A stretch of DNA of 24,000 nt, taken from Okeania sp. GTDB lineage: Bacteria; Cyanobacteriota; Cyanobacteriia; Cyanobacteriales; Microcoleaceae. This document shows, piece by piece, positions 1,800 to 20,064 of the stretch; the first letter of the stretch is position 1; every line of letters starts with the position of its first letter. The notes under the pieces were generated by a model. The model was given only the letters and a program-made list of their open reading frames with translations. It did no database searches and had not been told where the DNA came from. The position numbers and the translations under genes were made by a program. The stretch is from NCBI RefSeq assembly GCF_035285525.1, contig NZ_JAYKGW010000186.1, positions 23,963 to 47,962 on the forward strand, written 5' to 3'.

Positions 1800-3563
1800 A
1801 TGCAATCTAAAATTCAAACCTTACCAAAAGAAGTTGTCAATTTAATTGCTGCTGGAGAAGTGATAGATTCTTTAGCAGCGGTAGTCCGAGAATTAGTAGA
1901 AAATTCTCTGGATGCTGGTGCAACTCGGATCATAATTTCTATCTTTTCTGAACAGTGGCGAATCCAAATTTCTGATAATGGAATGGGTATGAATTTAGTT
2001 AATTTAAAACAAGCAGCAAATCCTCACAGTACGAGCAAAATTACTAATCTTAAAGACCTGACAAAAATTACCAGTTTAGGATTTCGGGGAGAAGCACTTC
2101 ATAGTTTAGCAAATCTCTCCAATTTAGAAATATTAAGTCGTCCTAAATTACCTATTTCGGAAAAGGAAAATGAAGGTTGGCGAGTTCTTTATAATCAACA
2201 AGGAAAAGCTATTAAAACTGAAAGAGTTGCTATTGCCCCTGGTACTATTGTCAAAGTTTCTAATCTCTTTGGGAAATGGCCTGTACGTCGTCATGCAATG
2301 CCTTCTCCAGGACAACAAATGCGCGGCATACAATTAATTATTCAGCAAATATCTCTTTGTTATCCTGATGTGACTTGGCAAGTTTGGCAGGGTAGTAAAT
2401 TATGGATACAAATTAGTCCTGGCGCTACGGCAAAACAAATTTTACCTCAATTTTTATCGACAGTAAGATTGAATGATTTACAATATATTCAACAAGAAAT
2501 TGATGAGGAAGAACCAAAAGAATTAAATGCCGAAATATCAAATTTTTCCGAATATAAAGATTCTCAAATTTTGGATAGACAATCATTAGAATTAGTCTTA
2601 GGTTTACCTGATAGATGTCATCGCCGAAGACCAGATTGGGTAAAAGTTGCTATTAATAATAGGGTAGTAAAAGTTCCAGAATTAGAACAAACAATTATTA
2701 GTTCTTTAGCGCGGACTTGTCCTCGCGATCGCTATCCTGTCTGTTTTATTCATTTACAAATTTTTCCCTATCAAATTAACTGGAACCGTCATCCGGCAAA
2801 AACAGAAATTTATCTAGATAATTTGAAATTTTGGCAACAACAAATCAATCTAACAATTGGGAAAGCATTACAATTTAGTTCACAGATTATGCCAGAATTT
2901 CCTTTATCAGAAAGAGTGGAAAAAATCTTAAAAGTCTCAGAAAATACAGGCAATTATCAAAGTCGTCGAGTTCTAGAAAATTCACCAGATAATTCTGAAC
3001 AAGAAAATCAAGAATTAGGATTAATAGAATTAAAAGCGATCGCTCAATTACACAAAACTTATATATTAGCTGAACATCCCAATGGAATTTGGTTGATAGA
3101 ACAACATATTGCCCATGAAAGAATTTTATATGAAAAATTATGCGATGCTTGGCAAATAATTTATTTAGAAACTCCGATTATTTTACATCATTTATCTTCT
3201 GTTCAAATAGAACAACTTCAACGGTTAAATATAGAAGTAGAAATCTTTGGAGATTTTCTTTGGGCTGCTCGTACTGCTCCGGCAATGTTAGCTAAAAGAA
3301 ATGACTGTGCCGATGCTTTAATTGAACTTAGTAAAGGTGGCGATTTAGAATCAGCTAAAGTAGCTACAGCTTGTCGTAGTGCTATTAGAAATGGAACTGC
3401 TTTAAGCCTACCACAAATGCAAAGTTTATTAAATAAATGGCAACTTACTCGAAACCCTCGTACTTGTCCTCATGGTAGACCAATTTATTTATCTTTAGAA
3501 GAATCAGCTTTAGCTCGTTTCTTTAGAAGAAATTGGGTAATTGGAAAAAGTCATGGCATTTAA
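1800..3563 (+). CDS. mutL: DNA mismatch repair protein MutL (endonuclease-type)
   Basis: 587-aa ORF. GHKL ATPase motifs are present: AAGEVIDSLAAVVRELVENSLDAGATRI, DNGMGM, LGFRGEAL. C-terminal motifs are EQHIAHERILYE (at the DQHAxxExxxxE position), ACRSAIR and CPHGRP. Confidence 0.95.
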   Translation: MQSKIQTLPKEVVNLIAAGEVIDSLAAVVRELVENSLDAGATRIIISIFSEQWRIQISDNGMGMNLVNLKQAANPHSTSKITNLKDLTKITSLGFRGEALHSLANLSNLEILSRPKLPISEKENEGWRVLYNQQGKAIKTERVAIAPGTIVKVSNLFGKWPVRRHAMPSPGQQMRGIQLIIQQISLCYPDVTWQVWQGSKLWIQISPGATAKQILPQFLSTVRLNDLQYIQQEIDEEEPKELNAEISNFSEYKDSQILDRQSLELVLGLPDRCHRRRPDWVKVAINNRVVKVPELEQTIISSLARTCPRDRYPVCFIHLQIFPYQINWNRHPAKTEIYLDNLKFWQQQINLTIGKALQFSSQIMPEFPLSERVEKILKVSENTGNYQSRRVLENSPDNSEQENQELGLIELKAIAQLHKTYILAEHPNGIWLIEQHIAHERILYEKLCDAWQIIYLETPIILHHLSSVQIEQLQRLNIEVEIFGDFLWAARTAPAMLAKRNDCADALIELSKGGDLESAKVATACRSAIRNGTALSLPQMQSLLNKWQLTRNPRTCPHGRPIYLSLEESALARFFRRNWVIGKSHGI

Positions 3564-4237: not shown

Positions 4238-5062
4238 ATGAATGATTCTCCATATCGACAGTTATTTTATTCAGAAATTAATCAATCTGATGAACAAATA
4301 GATTTAGCTAAAGCTGCTCTTTATTTAGCATTAGAAGATGATAGAGAATTTGACCCCGATGAATATCTAAACGCTCTTGATACAATGGCAAATGAAGTGC
4401 AAGAAACATTGCCAGAATCTCTCTATCCTTTACGAATTATTAAAAGTATAAATAAGTATCTTTATAATGATTTAGGCTTGACTGGAAATACAACTAATTA
4501 TTACGACCCTAAAAATAGTTTCCTCAATCAAGTAATAGAAAGACGTACTGGCATCCCAATTACTTTATCCCTAGTTTATCTGGAAATTGCTAAAAGAATT
4601 AATTTTCCTATGGTTGGTATTGGAATGCCAGGACATTTCTTAATTCAACCTGATTTTGAAGAAGCTGGTATATTTGTAGATGCTTTTAACCAAGGAGAAA
4701 TTCTTTTTCCTCAAGATTGTCAAGAAAGATTGGCCCAAATTTATGGTCAACCAGTGGAACTGCAACCTCAGTTTTTCGCAACTATAAGTAATAAGCAGTT
4801 TCTAGCACGAATTTTGACAAATCTTAAGGTAATATATTTAAACAGAAATGAAGGGTTAAAAGCTATTGCAGCCATTGACCGAATTTTACTATTATTTCCA
4901 AATGCAGTTGTCGAAAAGCGAGACCGAGGCGTATTATATTGTCAGCTAAATTTTTGGGCAGAAGCTCGTCAAGATTTAGAAAGTTATGTAGTTAATATTC
5001 CTCAAGCTGAGGATGCAGAGATAATTAGGCAATTATTGGCTAAAATGATAACTGATAGCTGA
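4238..5062 (+). CDS. SirB1-like transglutaminase-core plus TPR protein (UPF0162 family)
   Basis: 274-aa ORF. Family-typical stretches include DLAKAALYLA, YYDPKNSFLNQVIERRTGIPITLSLVYLEIAKRINFPMVGIGMPGHFL and a C-terminal TPR-like region. Family assignment is from memory of the consensus. Confidence 0.8.
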   Translation: MNDSPYRQLFYSEINQSDEQIDLAKAALYLALEDDREFDPDEYLNALDTMANEVQETLPESLYPLRIIKSINKYLYNDLGLTGNTTNYYDPKNSFLNQVIERRTGIPITLSLVYLEIAKRINFPMVGIGMPGHFLIQPDFEEAGIFVDAFNQGEILFPQDCQERLAQIYGQPVELQPQFFATISNKQFLARILTNLKVIYLNRNEGLKAIAAIDRILLLFPNAVVEKRDRGVLYCQLNFWAEARQDLESYVVNIPQAEDAEIIRQLLAKMITDS

Positions 5063-5232
5063 TTTTAACCTCTTTTATTATCAGCATTTTCTGCGGAATA
5101 CTTTCCTACGGGATGCTACGCTTTCCGCAAACATAACTTTTAATTTTCGAAGGTTAGCTGACAGAAATGTTTCATTATTATTCACACCTTGACTACTAAT
5201 TCCTTCTACCAGGATAATGAGTTAATAACTTA

Positions 5233-8617: not shown

Positions 8618-9839
8618 TTAATTAAGTGTTACCTTAATGGGGTGAACTACAACACCCTCTATCCCATTGCTAAAAGCGTTTGGGACTGCTTTTCGTAATA
8701 TATTTAAACTGCCATTGACATCAGCATTATATTTGACACCATTTGAAGCTTGATAAAGTCCTCTTTTCACTCGTTTACCACTAAATCTCTGTTTGACACC
8801 TTTTTGATAAACTGGTAAATCGTCCCAATCTAAAAAACTAGCTTTTGACGTATAACTTTCTTCATTGATTATTACTTTGATTCCTACTAATTTAGCTTTG
8901 TATTTTAGTTGTTCAATTAACTTGAAAAAAGGAATTTGAACAAAATTTTGATTGTTTTTTCTTCCCAGATTTATACCTTGTTTCCAGTTAGGGTTATTTC
9001 CTATTACTAAAATTCCTATCTGGTTCTCTATGAGACGATTAATAATATATCTGCTAGTCTTATGCAAATAATCATCAATCTTTAAATTTCTTTTTGTCGA
9101 TAATCTTTTGATTCGGTTACTACTTTTAGCTTCTTTTAATTCTGATTGTAGTTTACCCTTTTTCTTATTATAGAATTGATTAATTGATTTGACTGGTCTG
9201 CCGTTAATAATAAAGGGTTGAAAACCTTTTTTATTTGATGTTACAGTCGCCAAATTATTCACTCCCAAATCTACAGAAGCTACATGATATTCTGATAAAT
9301 CTAATTTGACTTCAAGGCATTCGTAAACCACTTCTATCACATAGTAATTCAGCTTAGGAATAATCCTTACTTGTTGCAGAGAATCATAATTTATTTTACT
9401 GTCAAAAAATAGCTCACTTTTTGATAGTAATATCTTTTTATTTTTAACTAATTGAGGTTTACTAATCGCCTGTTTTGTATAGACTAGAATATTCCTTCCT
9501 TTCTTTTTATCTTTATATTTTGGCAGTTTGGGACGGCTTTTAAACTTACTTGGGCATTCATTATAAGCTCTTATCGCTTGAAAAAAACTTTGCCAATTTT
9601 TATCTAAAAGAATCAAAACCTGCGCTCGTAACTTTGGCTGGTATTGCTTGATAATCTACTCCCGATTGTAATAATTTTTGAACTTTTTTATAATCTAGAT
9701 AATTTCCTTTATTAATAAACTCTTGTCTAACTATGTAGTTAGCCATGTTATAGAGATTTTTCGACAAGAAAGCTAGAGCATCAAGTGATTTATAATTGGG
9801 ATGATTTTTTTTAATAATAGTACGTTCTACTAACTGCAT
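8618..9839 (-). pseudogene. tnpB: IS200/IS605-family (IS1341-like, no tnpA) TnpB RNA-guided nuclease homologue with one frameshift
   Basis: The two track ORFs (9600-9857 and 8618-9616) overlap in different frames. Frame A reads ...YQAIPAKVTSAGFDSFR*, and frame B reads ...AQVLILLDKNWQSFF.... Removing 1 nt near 9622-9630 joins them into the family-typical AKV..Q.L.LLDKNW.SFF. Likely start is ATG 9839 (MQLVERTIIKK), preceded by GGAGGG. RuvC-like residues are present: VDLGVNN (D), NEESYTSK (E), NADVNGSLNILRK (D). Confidence 0.85.
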
Positions 9840-9961
9840 TATCCCTCCTTTAAACATTTAACGAGCTATTCTGTTTTCCTTGTTCTTCTTCTGATTCCAT
9901 AAAAAGGTAAAAACTCGTATCTTTAGGGTAATATTGTGAATAGTGTTTTGTCAAAAATCAA

Positions 9962-10699
9962 ATGGGAAATAACAATGACGAAAATCATCCATCCCGTGAT
10001 GGAGAAGCTCAAAAAACAATAACTTGGACGCAGAAAAGAGAAGGACCACGCATCAATCCAAATAGCCCTCAAGAGCGGGCATACAATATAAATCCAGTTG
10101 AAAGACAGCAAAATAGTAAAGTCGTTTCAGGAAAACACGCAGGAGAACATAAGTGGTACGATCCAAGAACTGCAAGAGAGGGTTGGACTCCACCGAAAGC
10201 TGTAGGACGAGGCCAACGTTATGTTCCTACATCTCCGTCTCAATCTGGGATTAAAAATTCTCAATCACCAAAAGGTATAAACGCTAATCTAAGTCAAGGT
10301 CAAGACCAACCCAAAATAACAGCCTTTCGTTCGGCTAAAGCTGGTAAGAGTGAGATGGGTATTTTTAACGATTTAAGAAGATATCATCCAGAACAAAATC
10401 CAACAACCATGCGAGAACTTGCCAAGAATACCCATCAAAGTTATCAGCAAAGGCAAAAGAGTGAAGGACAATTACAACAAAAAAATGGCTCTAAAGGCAA
10501 AGAAGAGCCAAAACAAGGTCAGAACCTCAAAAAAGGAGTTGATCAAAGTCAACAAGGTACTAGCAAATCTTCTCAACCTTCTCAACCCCCCTCTAAATCC
10601 GCTAAACCTTCAGTTAGTCAGGGAGATACAAAGAAATCAACACAGACAAAGCAACCTAGTCAAGTCTTTTTTTCTAGCCAAAGCTCAAATTGTTCGTAG
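9962..10699 (+). CDS. Hypothetical Q/S/K/P-rich, predicted disordered protein (T-depleted coding strand)
   Basis: 245-aa ORF with no recognisable domain and no obvious SD. The + strand is strongly A-rich and T-poor, so a second + frame (10419-10706) is also open. The long ORF could therefore be partly a compositional artefact. Confidence 0.4.
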   Translation: MGNNNDENHPSRDGEAQKTITWTQKREGPRINPNSPQERAYNINPVERQQNSKVVSGKHAGEHKWYDPRTAREGWTPPKAVGRGQRYVPTSPSQSGIKNSQSPKGINANLSQGQDQPKITAFRSAKAGKSEMGIFNDLRRYHPEQNPTTMRELAKNTHQSYQQRQKSEGQLQQKNGSKGKEEPKQGQNLKKGVDQSQQGTSKSSQPSQPPSKSAKPSVSQGDTKKSTQTKQPSQVFFSSQSSNCS

Positions 10700-12291: not shown

Positions 12292-12313
12292 TTTAATAGT
12301 TAATAATGGATAA

Positions 12314-12518
12314 TTAGGGCTTGCTGATTAAATTTAACAGTCTTAAAAGATAAAGGTTTTAGACTTTTTTTAGTCCTGAAAAAGGGCGGATTTCAGCATC
12401 CCTGTAGGGGCGGGTCTGGTCAGTAAGTTAACGAGTCTTCATGTTAAGGTAGCTAGACCCGCCCCCACTACAGCAGAGTGTAGAGGGTTTGGAGACTAAA
12501 CCCCTACTCCCTACTCCC
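12314..12518. repeat. Composite intergenic repeat: MITE-like end related to 1057-1135, two GGGGCGGG-type hairpins and a CTACTCC repeat
   Basis: TTAGGGCTTGCTGATTAAAT...ATAAAGGT...TTTTTAGTCCTGAAAAAG (12314-12384) parallels 1057-1125. Hairpin GGGGCGGGTCT (12407-12417) pairs with AGACCCGCCCC (12455-12465). An imperfect second hairpin joins GTAGAGGGTTT to AAACCCCTAC (12480-12507). CCCCTACTCCCTACTCCC lies at 12501-12518. Confidence 0.65.
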
Positions 12519-13817: not shown

Positions 13818-14610
13818 TTTATAGATGTTGGAATTTAGTTTTTTATCAGCATTTAGCTATAGCAATCCCATTTAAGTCGTTTACAAAATTTCGTTGCTTT
13901 TAGGATAGGCAAAAGGAAATGGTGAAAAATGAATAGGCGGGAATTTTAGTTTTTTTTATTTACTTTTTAATTGGTTACATAAGTATTTCCTGCTGAATCC
14001 TTACGTTACAACTTATTTAGGATTGCTATATTAACCGTCAGTTCTCAAAAATAAAACTTTGCTTTTGTAGTAAGATTTAAGTTAATCTTAATAGCAGCTC
14101 AAGTAATAGTTGATTACTTAGGTTTTGTTGTATTCCATTACCCTGATATATAGGAAAAATAACTAATATTGAGTTTTGAGATAGCTGTCTGTAGGATTTC
14201 TTACAAACAGGGCTATTTTACTTACTAAAGATAGTTTCTTCCTCAAAAGAAATTATATCGCAATTTTATTTCAAGTGGTTAATCAAAGTTTTCTAAGTTT
14301 TCCTGACTTATGGAAACTAGCACCTGTTCCCTACTTGCCACCAGCACCAAAAATATTCTCTAGAACTTTTGATTTCGGTGTATGTCATAGCGTGCCAAAA
14401 TACTTTTTTTCTTATCCCCTATTCCCTCCATACCTATTCCCTGTCTTGGTCGATTAGATATGGTCAGGAAACTTGACCATCTTTCGACCGCTTTTCCCTA
14501 AAAGCGATAAATTTTTGGCTTTCTGTAAAATTGAGATTTACCCTTTAATTTTGCCTTTAAACCCCAAAAAATAATTTGAGTTCAACAATAACAAATATTC
14601 TTATATAATT

Positions 14611-16053
14611 ATGACAAATATTTCAGGAGAACTACCAATAACTATGGTTTGTCATATTACTTTACTCCAACTGACTAAAATATTAACTTCTACAACACTT
14701 ACAGGTTTTGATGTTCCAGAAAAAACATTAATTACAGGTATAAATACAGATACTCGTAGTTTAAAATCTGGTGAAGGATTTTTAGCATTACAGGGTGAAA
14801 ACTTTGATGGTCATAATTTTGTTAAGCAAGCAATCGAAAAGGAAGCTGGTTGTATAATTGTTGAACAAGAATATATCTTAAATAATGAAGTTAAAGAACT
14901 ATCAAAGAATATACCTATATTACAAGTAGAAAATACTTTAAAAGCTTATCAAAAAATTGCTCGTTGGTGGCGAGATAGATTTGATATTCCTGTAATTTCT
15001 ATCACAGGTTCTGTAGGTAAAACTACTACTAAGGAATTAATCGCTGCAGTTTTGGGAACTCAAGGTCAAGTTATCAAAACTGAAGCTAATTATAATAATG
15101 AAATAGGTGTACCTAAAACTCTATTACGACTTTCTGATAATGATAATTATGCGGTGATAGAAATGGCAATGCGAGGACCTGAAGAAATTGCAGAATTAAC
15201 AAATATTGCTAATCCAACTATTGGTTTAATTACAAATGTTGGTACTGCTCATATTGGTCGTTTAGGTTCTGTGGAAGCGATCGCTAAAGCTAAGTGTGAG
15301 TTATTAAGAGAAATGTCTCAGGATAGTATTGCGATTCTAAATTATGATAATAAAAGGTTGATAGAAACTGCTGCTAAATTTTGGTCTGGAGAAACTTTTA
15401 CTTATGGTTTAGAAGGTGGAGATTTACAAGGAAAATTAATTGATTCTCAAACTATAAATGTTGATGGTTTAGATTTACCTTTACCTTTATCTGGCAGTCA
15501 TAATGCTTCTAATTATTTAGCAGCATTAGCAGTGTTGAAAGTTTTGCATGGAAAAAATATTTCGACAAAAAATTTATTTGAACCTTTGACTAATAATTTC
15601 TCAGTTCAGTTACCAGGAAGTAGGGCAAAAAAATATGATTTAGACAATGATATTGTGATTTTAGATGAAAGTTATAATGCTGGATTAGAATCAATGATAG
15701 CTGCTTTAAATTTATTAGCTGAAACTCCAGGTAAACGTCATATTGCTGTTTTGGGAACTATGAAAGAATTAGGAGATCAATCAGTTTTATTCCATGAACA
15801 AGTTGGCAATGTTGTGAGAAATTTAAAGATAGATGGTTTATTTATTTTAGCTGATTTTGAAGAAGGAAAAGCAATCGTTAAAGGTGCTGCTGGTTTAAAA
15901 TTTATAGAAGTAGAAAATATTGCTGCTGATGATGCTCACCAGAATTTAGCTAGACATTTACAAGAGTTTTTAAGAGCAGGCGATCGAGTTCTTTTTAAAG
16001 CTTCTAATGCTGTAGGGTTAAATAAAGTAGTCGAACTTTTAATTAATAAGTAA
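14611..16053 (+). CDS. murF: UDP-N-acetylmuramoyl-tripeptide--D-alanyl-D-alanine ligase
   Basis: 480-aa ORF with the Mur-ligase P-loop ITGSVGKTTTKE, plus NYNNEIGVP, EMAMRG, DESYNA and GTMKELG. An alternative in-frame start is ATG 14644. Confidence 0.9.
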   Translation: MTNISGELPITMVCHITLLQLTKILTSTTLTGFDVPEKTLITGINTDTRSLKSGEGFLALQGENFDGHNFVKQAIEKEAGCIIVEQEYILNNEVKELSKNIPILQVENTLKAYQKIARWWRDRFDIPVISITGSVGKTTTKELIAAVLGTQGQVIKTEANYNNEIGVPKTLLRLSDNDNYAVIEMAMRGPEEIAELTNIANPTIGLITNVGTAHIGRLGSVEAIAKAKCELLREMSQDSIAILNYDNKRLIETAAKFWSGETFTYGLEGGDLQGKLIDSQTINVDGLDLPLPLSGSHNASNYLAALAVLKVLHGKNISTKNLFEPLTNNFSVQLPGSRAKKYDLDNDIVILDESYNAGLESMIAALNLLAETPGKRHIAVLGTMKELGDQSVLFHEQVGNVVRNLKIDGLFILADFEEGKAIVKGAAGLKFIEVENIAADDAHQNLARHLQEFLRAGDRVLFKASNAVGLNKVVELLINK

Positions 16054-16068
16054 TATATTTTCTGTAGC

Positions 16069-16085
16069 ACAGGCATCTTGCCTGT
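16069..16085. terminator. Short hairpin between convergent murF and the 16134-17323 pseudogene
   Basis: ACAGGCA-TCT-TGCCTGT, a 7-bp stem. It belongs to the ACAGGCAAGATGCCTGT-type repeat class also seen at 20870-20914. Terminator function is inferred from position only. Confidence 0.35.
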
Positions 16086-16133
16086 CATGGGTGTATCTTA
16101 TCTGAAACACCCTGCAACATTAAATCCATTAAA

Positions 16134-17323
16134 TCATATAAGAAAAAACATCATCAAAAATAACACTTGTATCACCAAAATTATTGTGTAAGTTCGCTTA
16201 AATGCACCGTCATATTTTTTATAATTTATATATGACATTGCAAGTCCAGTACCATAAGAACCTCCAATTATCGTATAAAAACGTAAAATATATTCTGGAA
16301 TATCAAAAATAGAATAGTTATCGAAATAACACATAACAAAAGTTACCGTATTAATATAAAAATAATAGATAAATATTGCCATGTGAAGCATAAAAAAACA
16401 TCAGCAGTTTTTTCTTGGTAAAAAGAACTGTAAATACCTGTAAAACAACACATCATCAAAATTAGAGGTATATGTGTAACTATAGCCCAAAAAAATCTGC
16501 TATTTCTTGTGTTTTTATTTTGCCCTAGAATATAAAAAAATCTGATTATGCTAACAAAAATTATTCCAATTATAATCCTTTGAGAAAATATTTGAGGGCT
16601 ATCCCCCAACAAATCAAGAATTGAAGGATTTCTTGAATTTAGTGGTGTTAATAATAGAAATGGCACAAAATAAGATATTACACATAAAAGTACTGTTCCG
16701 ATAACTGCTTTTATTAGATTTATTGCTGAGTAGAAGAAAAAATAAACCAGGTATAATGAGAAAATAATTAATGAAATAAAGAACAAATTTTCTGAAAGAC
16801 TTATAATGCTACTGGGAAATGTAGCTACGATGTCAGGAGATTGCATAAATACATAAATAAACCCTGTTAGAATATAAACAAATAAAATGATGAAAAAAAG
16901 CTTTTACTTGCCAAGTTATCGTTAACGTTATTCTTTCCCAAATTTCCCCTATCGTCAGGTTTCTTGAAGATATTTTTCTATCTTCTGCTATTTTATTTAA
17001 TCTATTTATTCTTTCTTGTTCTCGCCTTTTTTTCTTGTTCTCGCTTTTGCTCTTGCCTTTTTTGTTCTCGCTTTTCTTCTTGCTTTTCTTCATCTTTTTT
17101 AATTTCAGCTTCTTTTCTGTGAATTTTTAAATCAACCTGATGAAGTCGTCCTTTCCAATGGTTTATTTCTTGCTCTATTTCATAATTTTTTTCAGGAGAA
17201 TTTTCATTAATAGCAAATGGTGGATTTCTTTTACATTCTAAATGCCATATATCATTTTCTATTTGTTTTTTTTTCAGAAATAAGTGAAGAAAACTCAGAT
17301 TCTAATTTTTGCAAGTTATTCAT
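16134..17323 (-). pseudogene. Single ~397-codon gene (K/E-rich coiled-coil N-terminus, multi-TM core, DUF1294-like C-terminus) broken by four homopolymer frameshifts
   Basis: Manual translation links ATG 17323 (MNNLQKLESEFSSLISEKK) to KQIENDIWHLECKRNPPF...EQKREQEKK, then the three track ORFs (16833-17093, 16343-16846, 16134-16391). Each join needs a 1-nt change inside a run: T9 at 17266-17274, T7 at 17027-17033, A7 at 16893-16899 and A7 at 16392-16398. The C-terminus FDIPEYILRFYTIIGGSYGTGLAMSYINYKKYDGAFK resembles the DUF1294 core (RIPE..L..L...GG..G...GM....HKT.K..F). Confidence 0.7.
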
Positions 17324-17547
17324 TTTGGTTTTCGTATTTTGCGTGCGACAAATATATAATATTTACGAGCTATTATTTTAATGTTTAAATATTTATGGTT
17401 GAATGGAATTTAACAAATACTTTACTATTTTAGTACCAGTTTAATAGCAAATTGCTAAGGCGATCGCTCATACCTTACTAAAAACTATGGAACTTTATTG
17501 ATAACTTATAAATAATAATTAATTTTATTTTTGATTTTGGGAAAAGT

Positions 17548-17971
17548 CTAATCTAAAGCAGGATGCCAAACAACATATACCCAAGGTTTTCTAGCAGCAA
17601 CTATAACTAGATTATTAGTTCTTAAAGCTGTAACTCTAGCTCTGGAAACAGCAGTTATACCTTCATTTTTTTCCATCAGAACTCCATTTAAAATGATGCG
17701 ACCATTCTTGTTGACGTGGATTAAATAAAGATACTTTTTCCCCAGTCAAAGGATCGATACATTCAATCGTATTACCTTTAAATTCATTGCAGCTTTGACA
17801 AGCTAAACAAACATTTTCAAAGTTGGTTTCTCCACCTTTTGAAAGAGGATAAATATGGTCGTATGTCATACGAATACCACTATTTATTTCACTGGTTAAA
17901 CAATAACAGCAAGAGTGGCGATCGCTTTCTGCTATCTGAAGTCGTAGAGTTTGAGAAATGTAAGAAGACAT
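17548..17971 (-). pseudogene. HNH endonuclease, frameshifted in an A7 run
   Basis: The track ORF 17663-17971 carries the HNH core (CCYC...YDHIYPLSKGGETNFENVCLACQSCNEFKG) and ends ...WSSDGKK*. Removing one A from the run at 17666-17672 continues it as DGKNEGITAVSRARVTALRTNNLVIVAARKPWVYVVWHPALD* (stop 17548-17550). That matches the usual C-terminal extension of this cyanobacterial HNH family (DGT.I.G.T..GRAT...L..N......R..W...GWHP). Confidence 0.75.
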
Positions 17972-18003
17972 AATTCTTGATTTTTCGTTAATTAATTAAG
18001 ACG

Positions 18004-18399
18004 CTAAACTTTATATCTCCGCCAGTGAAGTAAAGCTACTGCCTGGGCTTTTTTTTAAAATAAATAAATCTGCTTCCTGTCTCATTTTCTTAATTCTAAT
18101 TGTTCATTTTATGTTAATCATCTACTATAATTAGCCTCAAGTAAACTATTATATTTTTTTCATTTATACGTCTGTTTTTGAATGTAAATAATCCGCCATA
18201 AACTATCATCATCTAGTCTATATAATCCAGCAATATCTACTAAAAATTACTCTGCAATATCCTCATTAATAGTAGTATTTTCTACTTTAAAAGTAGGAAT
18301 TACTATATCTTCCACAGAAGATTTCATTCCTATGGCAGTGTTAACTAAACGTTGATAAATTGCTTCTGGAATTTCTAAAGTAACTGTTTGTGTTTGCAT
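18004..18399 (-). pseudogene. Antitoxin-like small protein gene with six in-frame stop codons and no frameshift
   Basis: A single frame from ATG 18399 reads MQTQTVTLEIPEAIYQRLVNTAIGMKSSVEDIVIPTFKVENTTINEDIAE*FLVDIAGLYRLDDDSLWRIIYIQKQTYK*KKYNSLLEANYSR*LT*NEQLELRK*DRKQIYLF*KKAQAVALLHWRRYKV*. Internal stops: 18247-18249 TAA, 18160-18162 TGA, 18118-18120 TGA, 18109-18111 TAA, 18082-18084 TGA, 18055-18057 TAA. It resembles a widespread cyanobacterial family (MQT.TVTLE.PE..Y.RL...A.....S.E..., L..LDDD.LW.IA, E...EL..L, KA.AAALLRWRG); this is from memory. Confidence 0.65.
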
Positions 18400-18512
18400 A
18401 TTTTTTAGTCAGAAATTATCTTTTTTATTAACTAATGGTACAATATTAAATCTGATAATATTAATCCAGTAAAATTTGTAGTAGACTGTTTCATCTAAAA
18501 CTGTGCATTAGA

Positions 18513-18617
18513 TTGTCTCCCTTGTCTCCCTTGTCTTGCTTCTTGCTTCTTGCTTCTTCCTTCTATCATCGGCAATTTTATTCTCCTTGTTCCCTGTTCC
18601 CTGTTCCCTGTTCCCTG
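18513..18617. repeat. Short tandem repeats (STRR-like): TTGTCTCCC x2, TTGCTTC x3, CCCTGTT x4
   Basis: Read directly: TTGTCTCCCTTGTCTCCCTTGTCTTGCTTCTTGCTTCTTGCTTCTTCC (18513-18563) and CCTTGTTCCCTGTTCCCTGTTCCCTGTTCCCTG (18585-18617). These make up the 5' part of track ORF 18550-19338. Confidence 0.85.
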
Positions 18618-18651
18618 CGCGCAGCGCTATAATACAAAAAAAACTAATTTA

Positions 18652-19338
18652 ATGATGAGAGAAACTTCACTTAATATTATTGCCATTGGTATTTTTGTTC
18701 TGACCATGTTTAGTCTACTTGGACCAATGTTTAATGTATCTCCAGTAATACCAGCGATCGCTACTTTTTCTATCCTGGTATTAGCAACTATAGATGTTTT
18801 GGGATGGCAAGGACAGGGAGGTACAATTATTGTAGATTTAGTAGAAGGAACATCTTCAGAAAGACGGGAGCGGATCGTTCGTCACGAAGCAGGACATTTT
18901 TTAGTAGCTTATTTGTTAGAAATTCCTATTAGTGGTTATGCTTTGAGTGCATGGGAAGCATTTCGCCAAGGACAGTCAGCTCAAGGGGGAGTTAGGTTCG
19001 AGGACGAAAAGTTAGCTGCTCAATTAAATAAAGGTATGATTTCCGAGGAACTCTTGAACAAATATTTTACTGTCTGGATGGCAGGTATGGCAGCAGAAGA
19101 TTTTGTTTATGGTAACTCTCAAGGTGGAGCAGAAGATAGAACTAAAATTACAGCAGTTTTGACACAATTAAAACGTCCTGGACAATCTAAAATTAAGCAA
19201 AGTTGGGCATCTGCCCAAGCTCGTACTTTACTAGAAAATAATCATTCTGCTTATGAAGCTTTAGTGAAAGCAATGACAGAAAGAGCGTCTGTTTCTGATT
19301 GCTATCAAGTTATTCAGAATACAGGGAGTGAAGAGTAG
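18652..19338 (+). CDS. Membrane protein with FtsH-like peptidase M41 domain, lacking the AAA module (HExxH present)
   Basis: The preferred start is ATG 18652 (MMRETSLNIIAIG...) because 18550-18650 is tandem-repeat DNA. There are two N-terminal hydrophobic helices, then RHEAGHFLVAYLL (HExxH), WMAGMAAEDFVYG and GGAEDR. Confidence 0.7.
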   Translation: MMRETSLNIIAIGIFVLTMFSLLGPMFNVSPVIPAIATFSILVLATIDVLGWQGQGGTIIVDLVEGTSSERRERIVRHEAGHFLVAYLLEIPISGYALSAWEAFRQGQSAQGGVRFEDEKLAAQLNKGMISEELLNKYFTVWMAGMAAEDFVYGNSQGGAEDRTKITAVLTQLKRPGQSKIKQSWASAQARTLLENNHSAYEALVKAMTERASVSDCYQVIQNTGSEE

Positions 19339-19476: not shown

Positions 19477-19885
19477 TTAATCTTTTTCAGATGCTATTAT
19501 TTCTAATAAACAACTATAGAAAATTTGAAAACTTTTTGAGGTATTTTCCGTAGAGTTCATATATGGTGAAATATCTCTAGCAGCTCTCAATTTTTCTAAT
19601 CCTTCTTGATGATAACCTTTTCTTTGAAGCACCTCTTGTAAAGCTTCCCAAGTACCACCTTTAATGTTATCTGGGTCAAGATATTTAGATTTTTTATCGA
19701 GACTTTTAGGTACTTTAGGATAAGCTTTAGTCAAAGCTAGAATATCTCCAAAAAACCAAGCTTCTAATTCTTAAATCATAATTTTATTGATTAATTGATA
19801 TTTCTTTTTAGCTTTACTTTTTGCCAGAGTTTTTGTCATAAATCCAGCTTCTATAGCAATTTCTTCTAAGTCTTTCTTTAATTTT
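19477..19885 (-). pseudogene. C-terminal remnant of a DUF4276-like (OLD/Toprim-associated) gene with an in-frame TAA (tentative family)
   Basis: The frame of track ORF 19477-19734 stays open upstream: ...KKLKKDLEEIAIEAGFMTKTLAKSKAKKKYQLINKIMI*ELEAWFFGDILALTKAYPKVP.... The TAA is at 19771-19773. ELEAWFFGD and the C-terminal SKSFQIFYSCLLEI resemble the DUF4276 C-terminal pattern, recalled from memory. No N-terminus: the 5' side is replaced by a Uma2 5' fragment. Confidence 0.4.
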
Positions 19886-20064
19886 TTACACCTACTTCCA
19901 GCATTTTATAACACTCATCTACAGTAAATAATCGTCGCGATAATTGTACAGACACTATTAACTCCTTGAGAATAATTACATGAATTTGTTGAGTGTGAAA
20001 AATTATATTTATTCTAAATATTCTAATTAAAAATTTCTGTTAATCTCCCAATATTTCATCAACA
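19885..20064 (-). repeat. Duplicated fragments of the Uma2 gene: 5' end plus upstream region, and 3' end
   Basis: 19885-20017 parallels 20735-20867 at an exact 850-bp offset. The non-coding part (19957-20017 versus 20807-20867) differs at about one position, and the coding part is more diverged (VSVQLSRRLFTVDECYKMLEVGVKN* versus MVVQLSRKLFTVDQYNKILDAGVF...). 20030-20064 is identical over 35 bp to 20232-20266, the last 8 codons plus stop of Uma2. Confidence 0.85.

Follow-up and report, generated by a model that had tools for sequence, protein, structure and literature searches.

The segment 16134..17323 on the minus strand of the window (the whole 24,000-nucleotide stretch of Okeania sp. DNA analysed here) is most probably a genuine and fairly recent slippage pseudogene, a case of ordinary gene decay; we put the probability of this reading at about 80%. 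A sequence-only reading of the same DNA had left three explanations of the broken frame open, namely homopolymer assembly errors, very recent pseudogenisation driven by slippage, and partial function kept by transcriptional or translational slippage. The second is now clearly favoured, whereas the first is unlikely and the third very unlikely.

Frame structure of the broken gene

The gene lies in five frame pieces, and each overlap between neighbouring pieces contains one A/T run (T9, T7, A7 and A7 on the plus strand). The pieces, the runs at the four junctions, and two further runs that are in frame in the window are as follows.

16134..17323, minus strand: whole pseudogene, giving a 395-aa ORF on repair; relic of an Okeania-specific membrane protein of ~390-395 aa
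17252..17323, minus strand: piece 1, with ATG, 23 aa: ancestral codons 1-19, four out-of-frame codons and a stop
17002..17265 (frame open 17301..17002), minus strand: piece 2, coiled-coil region, ancestral codons ~20-98, stop at 17004..17002
16833..17026 (frame open 17126..16833), minus strand: piece 3, end of the coiled coil to the start of the first membrane helix, ancestral codons ~99-142
16343..16892 (frame open 16903..16343), minus strand: piece 4, membrane-helix core, ancestral codons ~143-309
16134..16391 (frame open 16400..16134), minus strand: piece 5, 85-aa ORF with the divergent DUF1294 domain and the last membrane helix
17266..17274, minus strand: junction 1, T9 on the plus strand (A9 in the sense strand), one base too long
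17027..17033, minus strand: junction 2, T7 on the plus strand (A7 sense), one base too long
16893..16899, minus strand: junction 3, A7 on the plus strand (T7 sense), one base too long
16392..16398, minus strand: junction 4, A7 on the plus strand (T7 sense), one base too short
16489..16495, minus strand: in-frame run, T7 sense in the window; T6, hence frameshifting, in Okeania SIO2C9 and KiyG1
17186..17192, minus strand: in-frame run, A7 sense in the window; A6, hence frameshifting, in KiyG1

Removal of one base at each of 17266-74, 17027-33 and 16893-99, and addition of one base at 16392-98, produces a 395-aa ORF without an internal stop. The sequence-only reading had described five pieces, four runs of 7-9 nt, no other lesion and a protein of ~397 aa, and all of these were recovered in place, with the small difference in length. 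Junction 2 sits within an imperfect tandem repeat of 19-27 nt coding for EEKREQKRQEQ. The K/E-rich helical N-terminus proposed earlier is also seen, with 55 K/E/R within residues 1-130 of the repaired protein. About six membrane helices had been predicted; a Kyte-Doolittle scan gives about seven hydrophobic segments, so that the outline stands and the count was slightly off. Rfam and tRNA scans of the window gave no match, and a promoter and terminator scan around the gene was uninformative, with fewer promoter-like sites than in shuffled sequence.

Orthologues and the protein family

An intact orthologue is found as a single ORF of 390 aa in the MAG P01_H01_bin.35 (protein P0010, locus L006 3893..5065). 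It aligns in a single tblastn HSP with residues 1-395 of the repaired protein at 80% identity, and it adjoins murF, as the gene does in the window; thus, the reassembly is correct. Adjacency to murF holds at every Okeania locus whose flanks were seen, and the window's own copy served as the syntenic anchor and as the baseline for substitution rates:

14611..16053, plus strand: murF, intact, convergent with the pseudogene

Five further orthologous DNA sequences are colinear across all four junctions. In DNA alignments against the orthologues, the window shows changes of +1, +1, +1 and -1 at the four runs and no other disruption of the frame. In the search for orthologues, a contig scan with the 20-mer GACATCGTAGCTACATTTCC led to five Okeania-type loci, the window's own genome not included, and a contig scan with peptide patterns from the family alignment gave no relative.

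Comparison with these sequences specifies the change at each junction. At junction 1, the closest allele, that of CHAS20-1, reads GAAAAAGAACAA, and the window differs from it by G>A and one extra A. At junction 2, the window has simply gained one base over the in-frame A6 of CHAS20-1. Junction 3 is an in-frame T6 in four orthologues and TTTGTT in CHAS20-1; the T7 of the window is also present in Okeania sp. KiyG1, in a copy with other lesions. At junction 4, where the orthologues read TTCTTTCT, the window has lost a base and undergone at least one C>T change. The runs at junctions 1, 2 and 4 are interrupted or absent in most or all orthologues, the exceptions being an in-frame A9 in P01_H01 and the in-frame A6 of CHAS20-1. 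Run length also varies at 16489-95, which is T7 in the window, P01_H01, SIO2B3 and SIO1H6, T8 in MAG08 and CHAS20-1, and T6 in SIO2C9 and KiyG1.

Seven of the eight Okeania lineages carry inactivating lesions in this gene, and the lesions differ between them. Those of the sister lineages are the following.

SIO2B3: nonsense codon at codon 24
CHAS20-1: nonsense codon at codon 51
SIO2C9: T7>T6 frameshift
KiyG1: three frameshifts and two insertions
MAG08: insertions and a 2-nt deletion
SIO1H6: frameshift and insertions

The broken copies include one isolate genome, which is among the Okeania assemblies bearing nonsense codons or insertions.

The C-terminus had been called DUF1294-like, and comparison of the two alignments by hhalign bears this out (probability 98.9%, E 1.1e-17). 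A direct Pfam scan of the repaired protein against DUF1294 (PF06961) gave 12.7 bits and E 0.16, short of the gathering cutoff of 25, and the Pfam scan of the intact orthologue P0010 gave no DUF1294 match. An exhaustive phmmer search with P0010 found four proteins (P0142, P0143, P0145 and P0146; E 6e-5 to 5e-4), all of which pass the Pfam DUF1294 model with E 1e-9 to 4e-24. On these alignments, we assign the C-terminus to a divergent DUF1294 domain. Its 80 residues align with the DUF1294 proteins, and P0143 also matches part of the upstream membrane region. The Okeania proteins differ in that the conserved DK...RIPE...HK is changed into DN...(D/G)IPE...YK, with a shortened loop, and in that a coiled coil of ~130 residues and five or six membrane helices are added upstream of what is otherwise a small membrane protein. 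Among the sequences compared, the family is confined to the genus Okeania; it is small, and a divergent DUF1294 domain is one of its defining features. AlphaFold2 models of the intact orthologue had a mean pLDDT of 66.8 when an alignment of 11 sequences was supplied and of 63.0 otherwise, with the membrane core at ~50; at such values, a fold search would not be meaningful. The literature searched contained nothing on Okeania pseudogenes or on this membrane-protein family.

Constraint on the gene and its genomic context

The dN/dS ratio is 0.55-1.08 for the gene family, against ~0.2 for murF, but it is not uniform along the gene. The first 130 codons have dN/dS ~1 and fall into two allele types whose distribution disagrees with the murF tree, whereas the membrane part has dN/dS 0.4-0.7 with low dS. 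In amino-acid conservation, the membrane part is comparable to MurF (dN 0.061 vs 0.070). Synonymous divergence of the gene is lower than in the adjacent murF, and this remains the oddity of the data set. Codon composition was considered as its cause and rejected: the deficit persists at four-fold sites (7/88 vs 40/162, p = 0.001), and GC3 is 0.215 in the gene, above the 0.12 of murF. Since the membrane part is as conserved as MurF and synonymous divergence is unexpectedly low, the family was, or partly still is, under some constraint.

On the window's branch, the 45 window-specific substitutions are evenly spread over codon positions (17/13/15). The repaired frame has no stop, though 5.6% of the possible substitutions would make one; ~2.5 stops are expected if all 45 changes were neutral, and the probability of finding none is 0.08. 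This absence fits a late onset of decay on that branch.

Other genes of the window are also decaying. The nearest is an endonuclease gene:

17548..17971, minus strand: HNH endonuclease pseudogene, with an N-terminal ORF of 102 aa and, behind it, the C-terminal part in a shifted frame

The HNH domain itself is present (Pfam E 4e-9). The gene was said to be broken in the same way as its neighbour. It is indeed broken at a run (17666-17672), but the net change is a loss of 2 nt relative to the 141-aa family and not a simple one-base change. Proteins of this family have 141 aa in the best matches and 139-150 aa across 120 listed of the 188 clusters (E <= 1e-10). Compared with the closest relative among the listed clusters, 6 of 100 residues differ before the shift and 8 of 39 after it (p = 0.023), and several of the latter are conserved residues (G, P, R, G). 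The C-terminal segment GRAT...NNP...GWHPP has left the frame of the HNH domain and has changes at conserved positions, unlike in a family member read in one frame. The frame of TnpB, too, is shifted, at a site that is no homopolymer (GTTACGAGCGCAGG), and a stop codon interrupts the frame of a DUF4276 remnant. Only ~61% of the window is covered by ORFs of 70 aa or longer, and the window also has repeated elements.

The AT-richness noticed earlier is real, since the segment has a GC content of 0.274 against 0.329 for the window and is its lowest stretch of 1190 bp. The foreign origin suggested on that ground is rejected, because the gene adjoins murF in all Okeania genomes with flanks seen and a GC of 0.27-0.29 is common to the family. 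Weak mismatch repair, to which slippage had been linked, also finds no favour, as an apparently intact MutL is encoded in the window.

Competing explanations and known systems

From these observations, we infer the following course of events. The ancestor would have been an Okeania-only inner-membrane protein of ~390 aa, encoded convergently with murF and composed of a cytoplasmic K/E-rich coiled coil, ~7 hydrophobic helices and a divergent DUF1294 C-terminus. Selection on this gene is weak throughout the genus. In the window's lineage, replication slippage would then have made four A/T runs longer or shorter. In two cases, an in-frame run (A6 and T6) grew by a single base, and the other two runs were probably first lengthened by substitutions toward A/T before they slipped. 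Once the first shift had occurred, later shifts would be neutral and could accumulate. No full-length protein would be made, and at most fragments, such as the 85-aa DUF1294 ORF, might be translated.

The run lengths could instead be an artefact of sequencing or assembly, with A/T homopolymers miscalled and an intact gene in the true genome. All shifts of the main gene fall in 7-9-nt runs, which are typical of homopolymer miscalls, no further lesion is left after the four length changes, and the sequence comes from a MAG contig. However, over 14495..18507 (4013 bp) the window shows 100% identity to a contig that Logan built separately from SRR19514071, with the same lengths at all five runs; Logan is k-mer-based and probably draws on the same reads, so that this agreement excludes an assembler or polishing artefact and not a systematic read error. 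Runs of at least 7 nt within the intact ORFs of the window (14.7 kb) offer a direct comparison. All eight of them are in frame, A8 and T8 included, whereas 3/7 are in frame within the pseudogene; out-of-frame runs number 0/8 in intact ORFs and 5/8 in the two broken genes (Fisher p = 0.026). Moreover, junctions 1 and 4 involve substitutions besides length changes, real pseudogenes lie nearby (HNH with its -2 nt and later decay, TnpB shifted outside a run, DUF4276 with a nonsense codon), and the nonsense codons and insertions of other Okeania assemblies are not possible as homopolymer errors. An artefact is thus unlikely, and minor read-length variants may exist within the population.

If the run lengths are real, the gene may still be something other than dead. 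One possibility is that slippage during transcription or translation at the A/T runs keeps it partly functional, as in Buchnera and Blochmannia. The AT-rich genome, the position of the shifts within A/T runs (one of them A9), the repaired frame free of nonsense codons and the well-conserved membrane part would agree with this, and long poly(A) runs of endosymbionts do yield 12-50% corrected transcripts (PMC5009743). However, each molecule would need four corrections, three of -1 and one of +1, and three of the tracts have only 7 nt, a long tract (at least 9 A/T) being found only at junction 1. In E. coli, slippage by RNA polymerase becomes detectable only on tracts of 7 T or longer, and on still longer ones in the case of A (PMC6260861), so the combined yield of the four corrections would be negligible. 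Nor is there a preserved slippery site in the family, since the runs at junctions 1, 2 and 4 are mostly interrupted, with two in-frame exceptions, and the frameshifted state recurs solely as the T7 of the otherwise damaged KiyG1 copy. With irreversible loss in sister lineages besides, rescue is hardly credible. A second possibility is a contingency or conflict locus, in which homopolymer tracts switch a surface or membrane protein on and off, for example for escape from phages or other antagonists. The window would then carry the 'off' form of a locus polymorphic among marine filamentous cyanobacteria, turned off, and perhaps on, by recurrent tract slippage. Tract lengths do vary between lineages at identical sites (T6/T7 at junction 3, T7/T6 at 16489-95), seven of eight lineages are 'off', the first 130 codons show dN/dS ~1 with two allele types at odds with the murF tree, and low synonymous divergence is expected under allele exchange. 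If this were true, the membrane protein would have a fast-evolving, recombining N-terminal domain, and allele exchange among Okeania lineages would account for the disagreement with the murF tree as well as for the synonymous divergence being so low. Against it, one switch cannot reverse four simultaneous shifts, most lesions of the sister lineages are of irreversible kinds, such as nonsense codons, insertions and a deletion of 2 nt, and three of the four tracts arose recently by substitution instead of being conserved as switches. We therefore regard such a locus as very improbable and retain the slippage pseudogene as the best explanation.

For a slippage pseudogene, the consequences beyond annotation are small. 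Neither the five ORF fragments nor the HNH fragment of 102 aa, an annotated protein in the source, should be taken for small proteins in their own right; they are to be read as pseudogenes. The case would also illustrate how an AT-rich, gene-sparse cyanobacterial genome loses an accessory gene, with A/T substitutions lengthening homopolymers that then slip, and it presents a parallel loss of one gene across a genus.

A close parallel is found in AT-rich bacterial genomes in which genes are inactivated by single-base indels in A/T homopolymers, as in the ongoing erosion of Buchnera aphidicola. Here, too, the first inactivating lesions are A/T runs that have gained or lost one base, such runs arise or grow through substitutions toward A/T, and several run lesions accumulate ahead of any nonsense codon. 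The difference is that Okeania is a large-genome, free-living or mat-forming filamentous cyanobacterium and not a reduced endosymbiont, and that mutL is apparently intact in its window. Phase-variable contingency loci with simple-sequence repeats are known in Haemophilus, Neisseria and Campylobacter. The Okeania gene resembles them in homopolymer lengths that differ among strains at identical positions, but it lacks a single conserved switch tract and carries several off-lesions at once, and its relatives have irreversible lesions. Frameshifted genes of Buchnera and Blochmannia are rescued by transcriptional slippage at poly(A) tracts (PMC5009743). The shifts within A/T runs of an AT-rich genome and the otherwise clean frame are common to both cases, whereas the Okeania gene has four shifts of both signs, three of them in 7-nt tracts, three of its four tracts are not conserved, and sister lineages lose the gene by other routes. 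Trichodesmium, the sister genus, is gene-sparse and rich in repeats and pseudogenes, and the genome of T. erythraeum IMS101 is only ~60% coding (PMC4143802). Although that work covers Trichodesmium and not Okeania, the Okeania window is much alike in its ORF coverage, its repeated elements and its decaying HNH, TnpB and DUF4276 genes.

Frame structure and identity of the gene

On the minus strand, positions 17323..16134 hold five consecutive open stretches in alternating frames. Each overlap between pieces contains one run, namely (in plus-strand letters) T9 at 17266-17274, T7 at 17027-17033, A7 at 16893-16899 and A7 at 16392-16398, called junctions 1 to 4 below.

Open pieces of the gene
17323..17252, minus: piece 1 (ATG plus 23 codons)
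17301..17002, minus: piece 2
17126..16833, minus: piece 3
16903..16343, minus: piece 4
16400..16134, minus: piece 5

Removal of one base at each of the first three runs and addition of one at the fourth give a 1188-nt ORF, 395 codons long and free of internal stops. Translation and repair thus bore out the five pieces, the four runs and the stop-free repair of the sequence-only reading; the length, put there at about 397 aa, is 395 aa. The repaired protein matched two proteins in a collection of 5.8 billion, from Okeania sp. SIO2C9 and a tar-biofilm MAG. Both keep a single frame through junctions 1-3, and their genes are convergent with murF (14611..16053, plus strand), the same arrangement as in the window. 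A scan of species-representative genomes for a conserved 20-mer found five loci, and MAG P01_H01_bin.35 has an intact 390-aa ORF that matches the repaired protein over residues 1-395 in one HSP at 80% identity. Because of this intact orthologue and the read-through homologues, the five pieces are to be taken as one gene, as had been proposed; in no homologue found in the protein collection or the species-representative genomes are the pieces separate genes. On the contig, murF and a 102-aa fragment of the neighbouring HNH gene have NCBI protein accessions; three gene pieces, looked up by exact match, occur in a Logan assembly alone.

The N-terminal ~130 residues are rich in K, E and R with predicted long helices, and about 7 hydrophobic segments follow (about 6 membrane helices in the sequence-only reading). 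DUF1294 is insignificant in the repaired protein by Pfam (E 0.16). With the intact orthologue as query, an exhaustive HMMER search confined the family to Okeania fragments and returned four weak matches (E 6e-5 to 5e-4), all of them genuine DUF1294 proteins by Pfam (E 1e-9 to 4e-24); in one of them, P0143, the similarity extends to part of the upstream membrane region. Profile-profile comparison with DUF1294 gave a probability of 98.9% (E 1e-17). Since the weak matches were verified and the profiles agree, the C-terminus is a divergent DUF1294 domain, and the earlier assignment stands despite the Pfam score. The motif DK...RIPE...HK of DUF1294 has become DN...(D/G)IPE...YK in the Okeania family. 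Structure models (pLDDT 63-67) were too poor for use.

Changes at the junctions were read against the closest allele, from the CHAS20-1 metagenome (91.8% nucleotide identity), and the remaining orthologues.

Changes at the four junctions
Junction 1: GAAAAAGAACAA to G-A9-CAA (G>A and one additional A)
Junction 2: A6, in frame, to A7
Junction 3: T6, in frame, to T7
Junction 4: TTCTTTCT to T7 (one base lost, at least one C>T change)

Junctions 2 and 3 are thus plain +1 expansions of pre-existing runs, and the shifts at junctions 1 and 4 would have arisen in runs first made or extended by substitutions toward A/T. Long runs are a normal feature of the family; the intact P01_H01 gene has an in-frame A9 at the place of junction 1 and four runs of 7.

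Loss and divergence across Okeania

State of the gene in Okeania
P01_H01_bin.35: intact
SIO2B3: CAG>TAG at codon 24
CHAS20-1: stop at codon 51
SIO2C9: T7>T6 at the run equivalent to window 16489-16495
KiyG1 (isolate): A7>A6; T6>T7 at the junction 3 site; T7>T6; two insertions, each after TTAC; truncated second copy
MAG08: 190-bp insertion, second insertion and 2-nt deletion
SIO1H6: frameshift after residue 84 and insertions
Window: four frameshifts

By these alleles, the gene is in the course of loss throughout the genus. Pairwise dN/dS in the family (Nei-Gojobori) is 0.55-1.08; codons 1-130 come out near 1 and the membrane part at 0.4-0.7, against ~0.2 in murF of these genomes. Substitutions specific to one lineage show no preference for a codon position, with counts of 17/13/15 in the window and 11/8/8 even in the intact P01_H01 gene. 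Stop-creating changes make up 5.6% of possible substitutions, and ~2.5 stops would be expected were all 45 window-specific changes neutral; the repaired frame has none (P = 0.08), which suggests that decay on this branch began late. In KiyG1 a 478-aa ORF stands between the first copy and the truncated second one (locus L007, 6050-7000), after which comes the DAO gene, so the locus has undergone duplication or rearrangement in this isolate.

Divergence was compared pairwise with P01_H01_bin.35, MAG08, KiyG1 and two other Okeania loci (L001, L003). In deeper genome pairs the synonymous divergence of the family (window 16134-17126) is 2-3 times below that of murF (14611-16053), and it coexists with the lack of codon-position bias. 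At four-fold sites 7/88 differ in the gene and 40/162 in murF (p = 0.001); codon composition as the cause is ruled out, as the deficit holds at these sites. The first ~300 nt (window 17127-17426 and orthologous 5' ends) diverge by 0.20-0.27 and fall into two allele types, one of the window, MAG08 and CHAS20-1 and the other of P01_H01, the SIO genomes and KiyG1, in conflict with the murF tree. The allele types suggest inter-lineage recombination; recombination between Okeania lineages and then parallel loss would fit both them and the low synonymous divergence.

Neighbouring genes and mobile elements

Other features of the window
1800..3563, plus: MutL, 587 aa, apparently intact (HATPase_c_3, DNA_mis_repair and MutL_C domains)
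9857..8618, minus: TnpB (IS605 OrfB; OrfB_IS605 and Cas12f1-like TNB domains), split into 85-aa and 332-aa pieces
about 19477-19900, minus: DUF4276 remnant, with the Pfam match confined to the C-terminal ~75 residues

Nearly all of the best HNH family matches have a length of 141 aa (139-150 aa among the best 120 of 188 clusters at E <= 1e-10), and the window copy has a net change of -2 nt at a run. Compared with the closest relative of this copy, 8/39 positions differ after the break versus 6/100 before (p = 0.023), and the later changes hit several otherwise conserved residues. TnpB is shifted near GTTACGAGCGCAGG (about 9616-9640), a sequence without a homopolymer, and the DUF4276 remnant lacks its N-terminus and has an in-frame stop upstream (KIMI*ELEAWFF). 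The 3.7 kb between the gene and the DAO gene (HNH, M41-like ORF, DUF4276 remnant, Uma2) are mostly absent from other loci; it is this HNH-to-DAO stretch, not the membrane-protein gene, that appears to be the variable accessory region. Two adjacent tandem arrays of heptamers, TCTTGCT x4.4 and TCCCTGT x4.9 (18534-18617), lie where the M41-like ORF (18550..19338) begins; they resemble the short heptameric tandem repeats of filamentous cyanobacteria. A 245-aa ORF at 9962-10699 (plus) is rich in Q, S, K and P, has an unusually high GC of 0.41, lies in a region of strong AT skew (0.37) and gave no Pfam match.

No other 1190-bp stretch of the window is as AT-rich as the gene (GC 0.274 vs 0.329 for the window). 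A recent foreign origin is unsupported, because orthologues share both this composition (GC 0.28-0.29) and the position beside murF, and the suggestion of weak mismatch repair gains no support here, where mutL is apparently complete. A dispersed repeat of ~250 bp (70-83% identity) occurs at 1054-1308 and 12311-12397, and elsewhere at L001 1264-1520 and 5201-5454, L003 7374-7613 and MAG08 (L002) 1653-1813. Its two window sites do not correspond to its places in other Okeania loci, which makes a MITE-like element probable. The orthologous genes also contain small insertions, in KiyG1 at about 2880-3200 and in MAG08 at about 5030-5225, with a fragment in the window at 14441-14495; they have a common core CGAAAAATT..GGTATAAAGCCTC..CCTTT. 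Those of KiyG1 and MAG08 lie directly 3' of TTAC (GCTATAGTTAC| and GGTATTTAC|), the sequence targeted by IS200/IS605-type elements, and this position suggests that they are non-autonomous derivatives of such elements.

Artefact, rescue or loss

That the run lengths are a sequencing or assembly artefact is improbable. The separate Logan assembly of SRA run SRR19514071 has a contig that agrees at every base with window 14495..18507, all five runs included, which tells against the assembly-error option of the sequence-only reading. The match excludes an assembler or polishing artefact, not systematic read error, because the Logan reads are probably the same reads; we infer accurate reads, as a perfect 4-kb k-mer contig implies. 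All eight runs of 7-8 nt in the window's intact ORFs (14.7 kb) are in frame, and 3/7 inside the pseudogene are, relative to orthologues; out-of-frame runs number 0/8 in intact ORFs versus 5/8 in the two broken genes (p = 0.026). A miscall could not produce the HNH decay downstream of its break, the TnpB frameshift lies outside any run, the DUF4276 remnant carries its stop, and orthologues in other assemblies have lesions that no homopolymer error could cause. Phase variation or a conflict locus would agree with the recurrent length differences between lineages at two tracts; it is contradicted by several simultaneous shifts in the window and irreversible lesions in relatives, and we consider it very improbable.

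Hardest to credit is slippage rescue keeping the gene functional, the third option raised earlier. It needs three -1 corrections and one +1 in one molecule, and three tracts are only 7 nt. E. coli RNA polymerase slips detectably on T runs only from 7 nt upward, and on A runs only when they are longer (PMC6260861). The combined yield, as a product of four small probabilities, would be negligible. Most orthologues either lack three of the four tracts or have them interrupted, and the family as a whole does not conserve the frameshifts. Slippage-driven pseudogenisation is accordingly favoured: we put at roughly 0.8 that this is a real pseudogene, and our verdict is an ordinary one, broken by slippage, of a DUF1294-type membrane protein restricted to Okeania. 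The endosymbiont genes rescued by slippage have long poly(A) runs, with 12-50% corrected transcripts (PMC5009743), unlike the three 7-nt tracts here. The setting of the pseudogene is a gene-sparse, decaying accessory neighbourhood. No more than ~61% of the 24-kb window is covered by ORFs of 70 aa or longer, similar to the coding fraction of ~60% reported for the sister genus Trichodesmium (PMC4143802).
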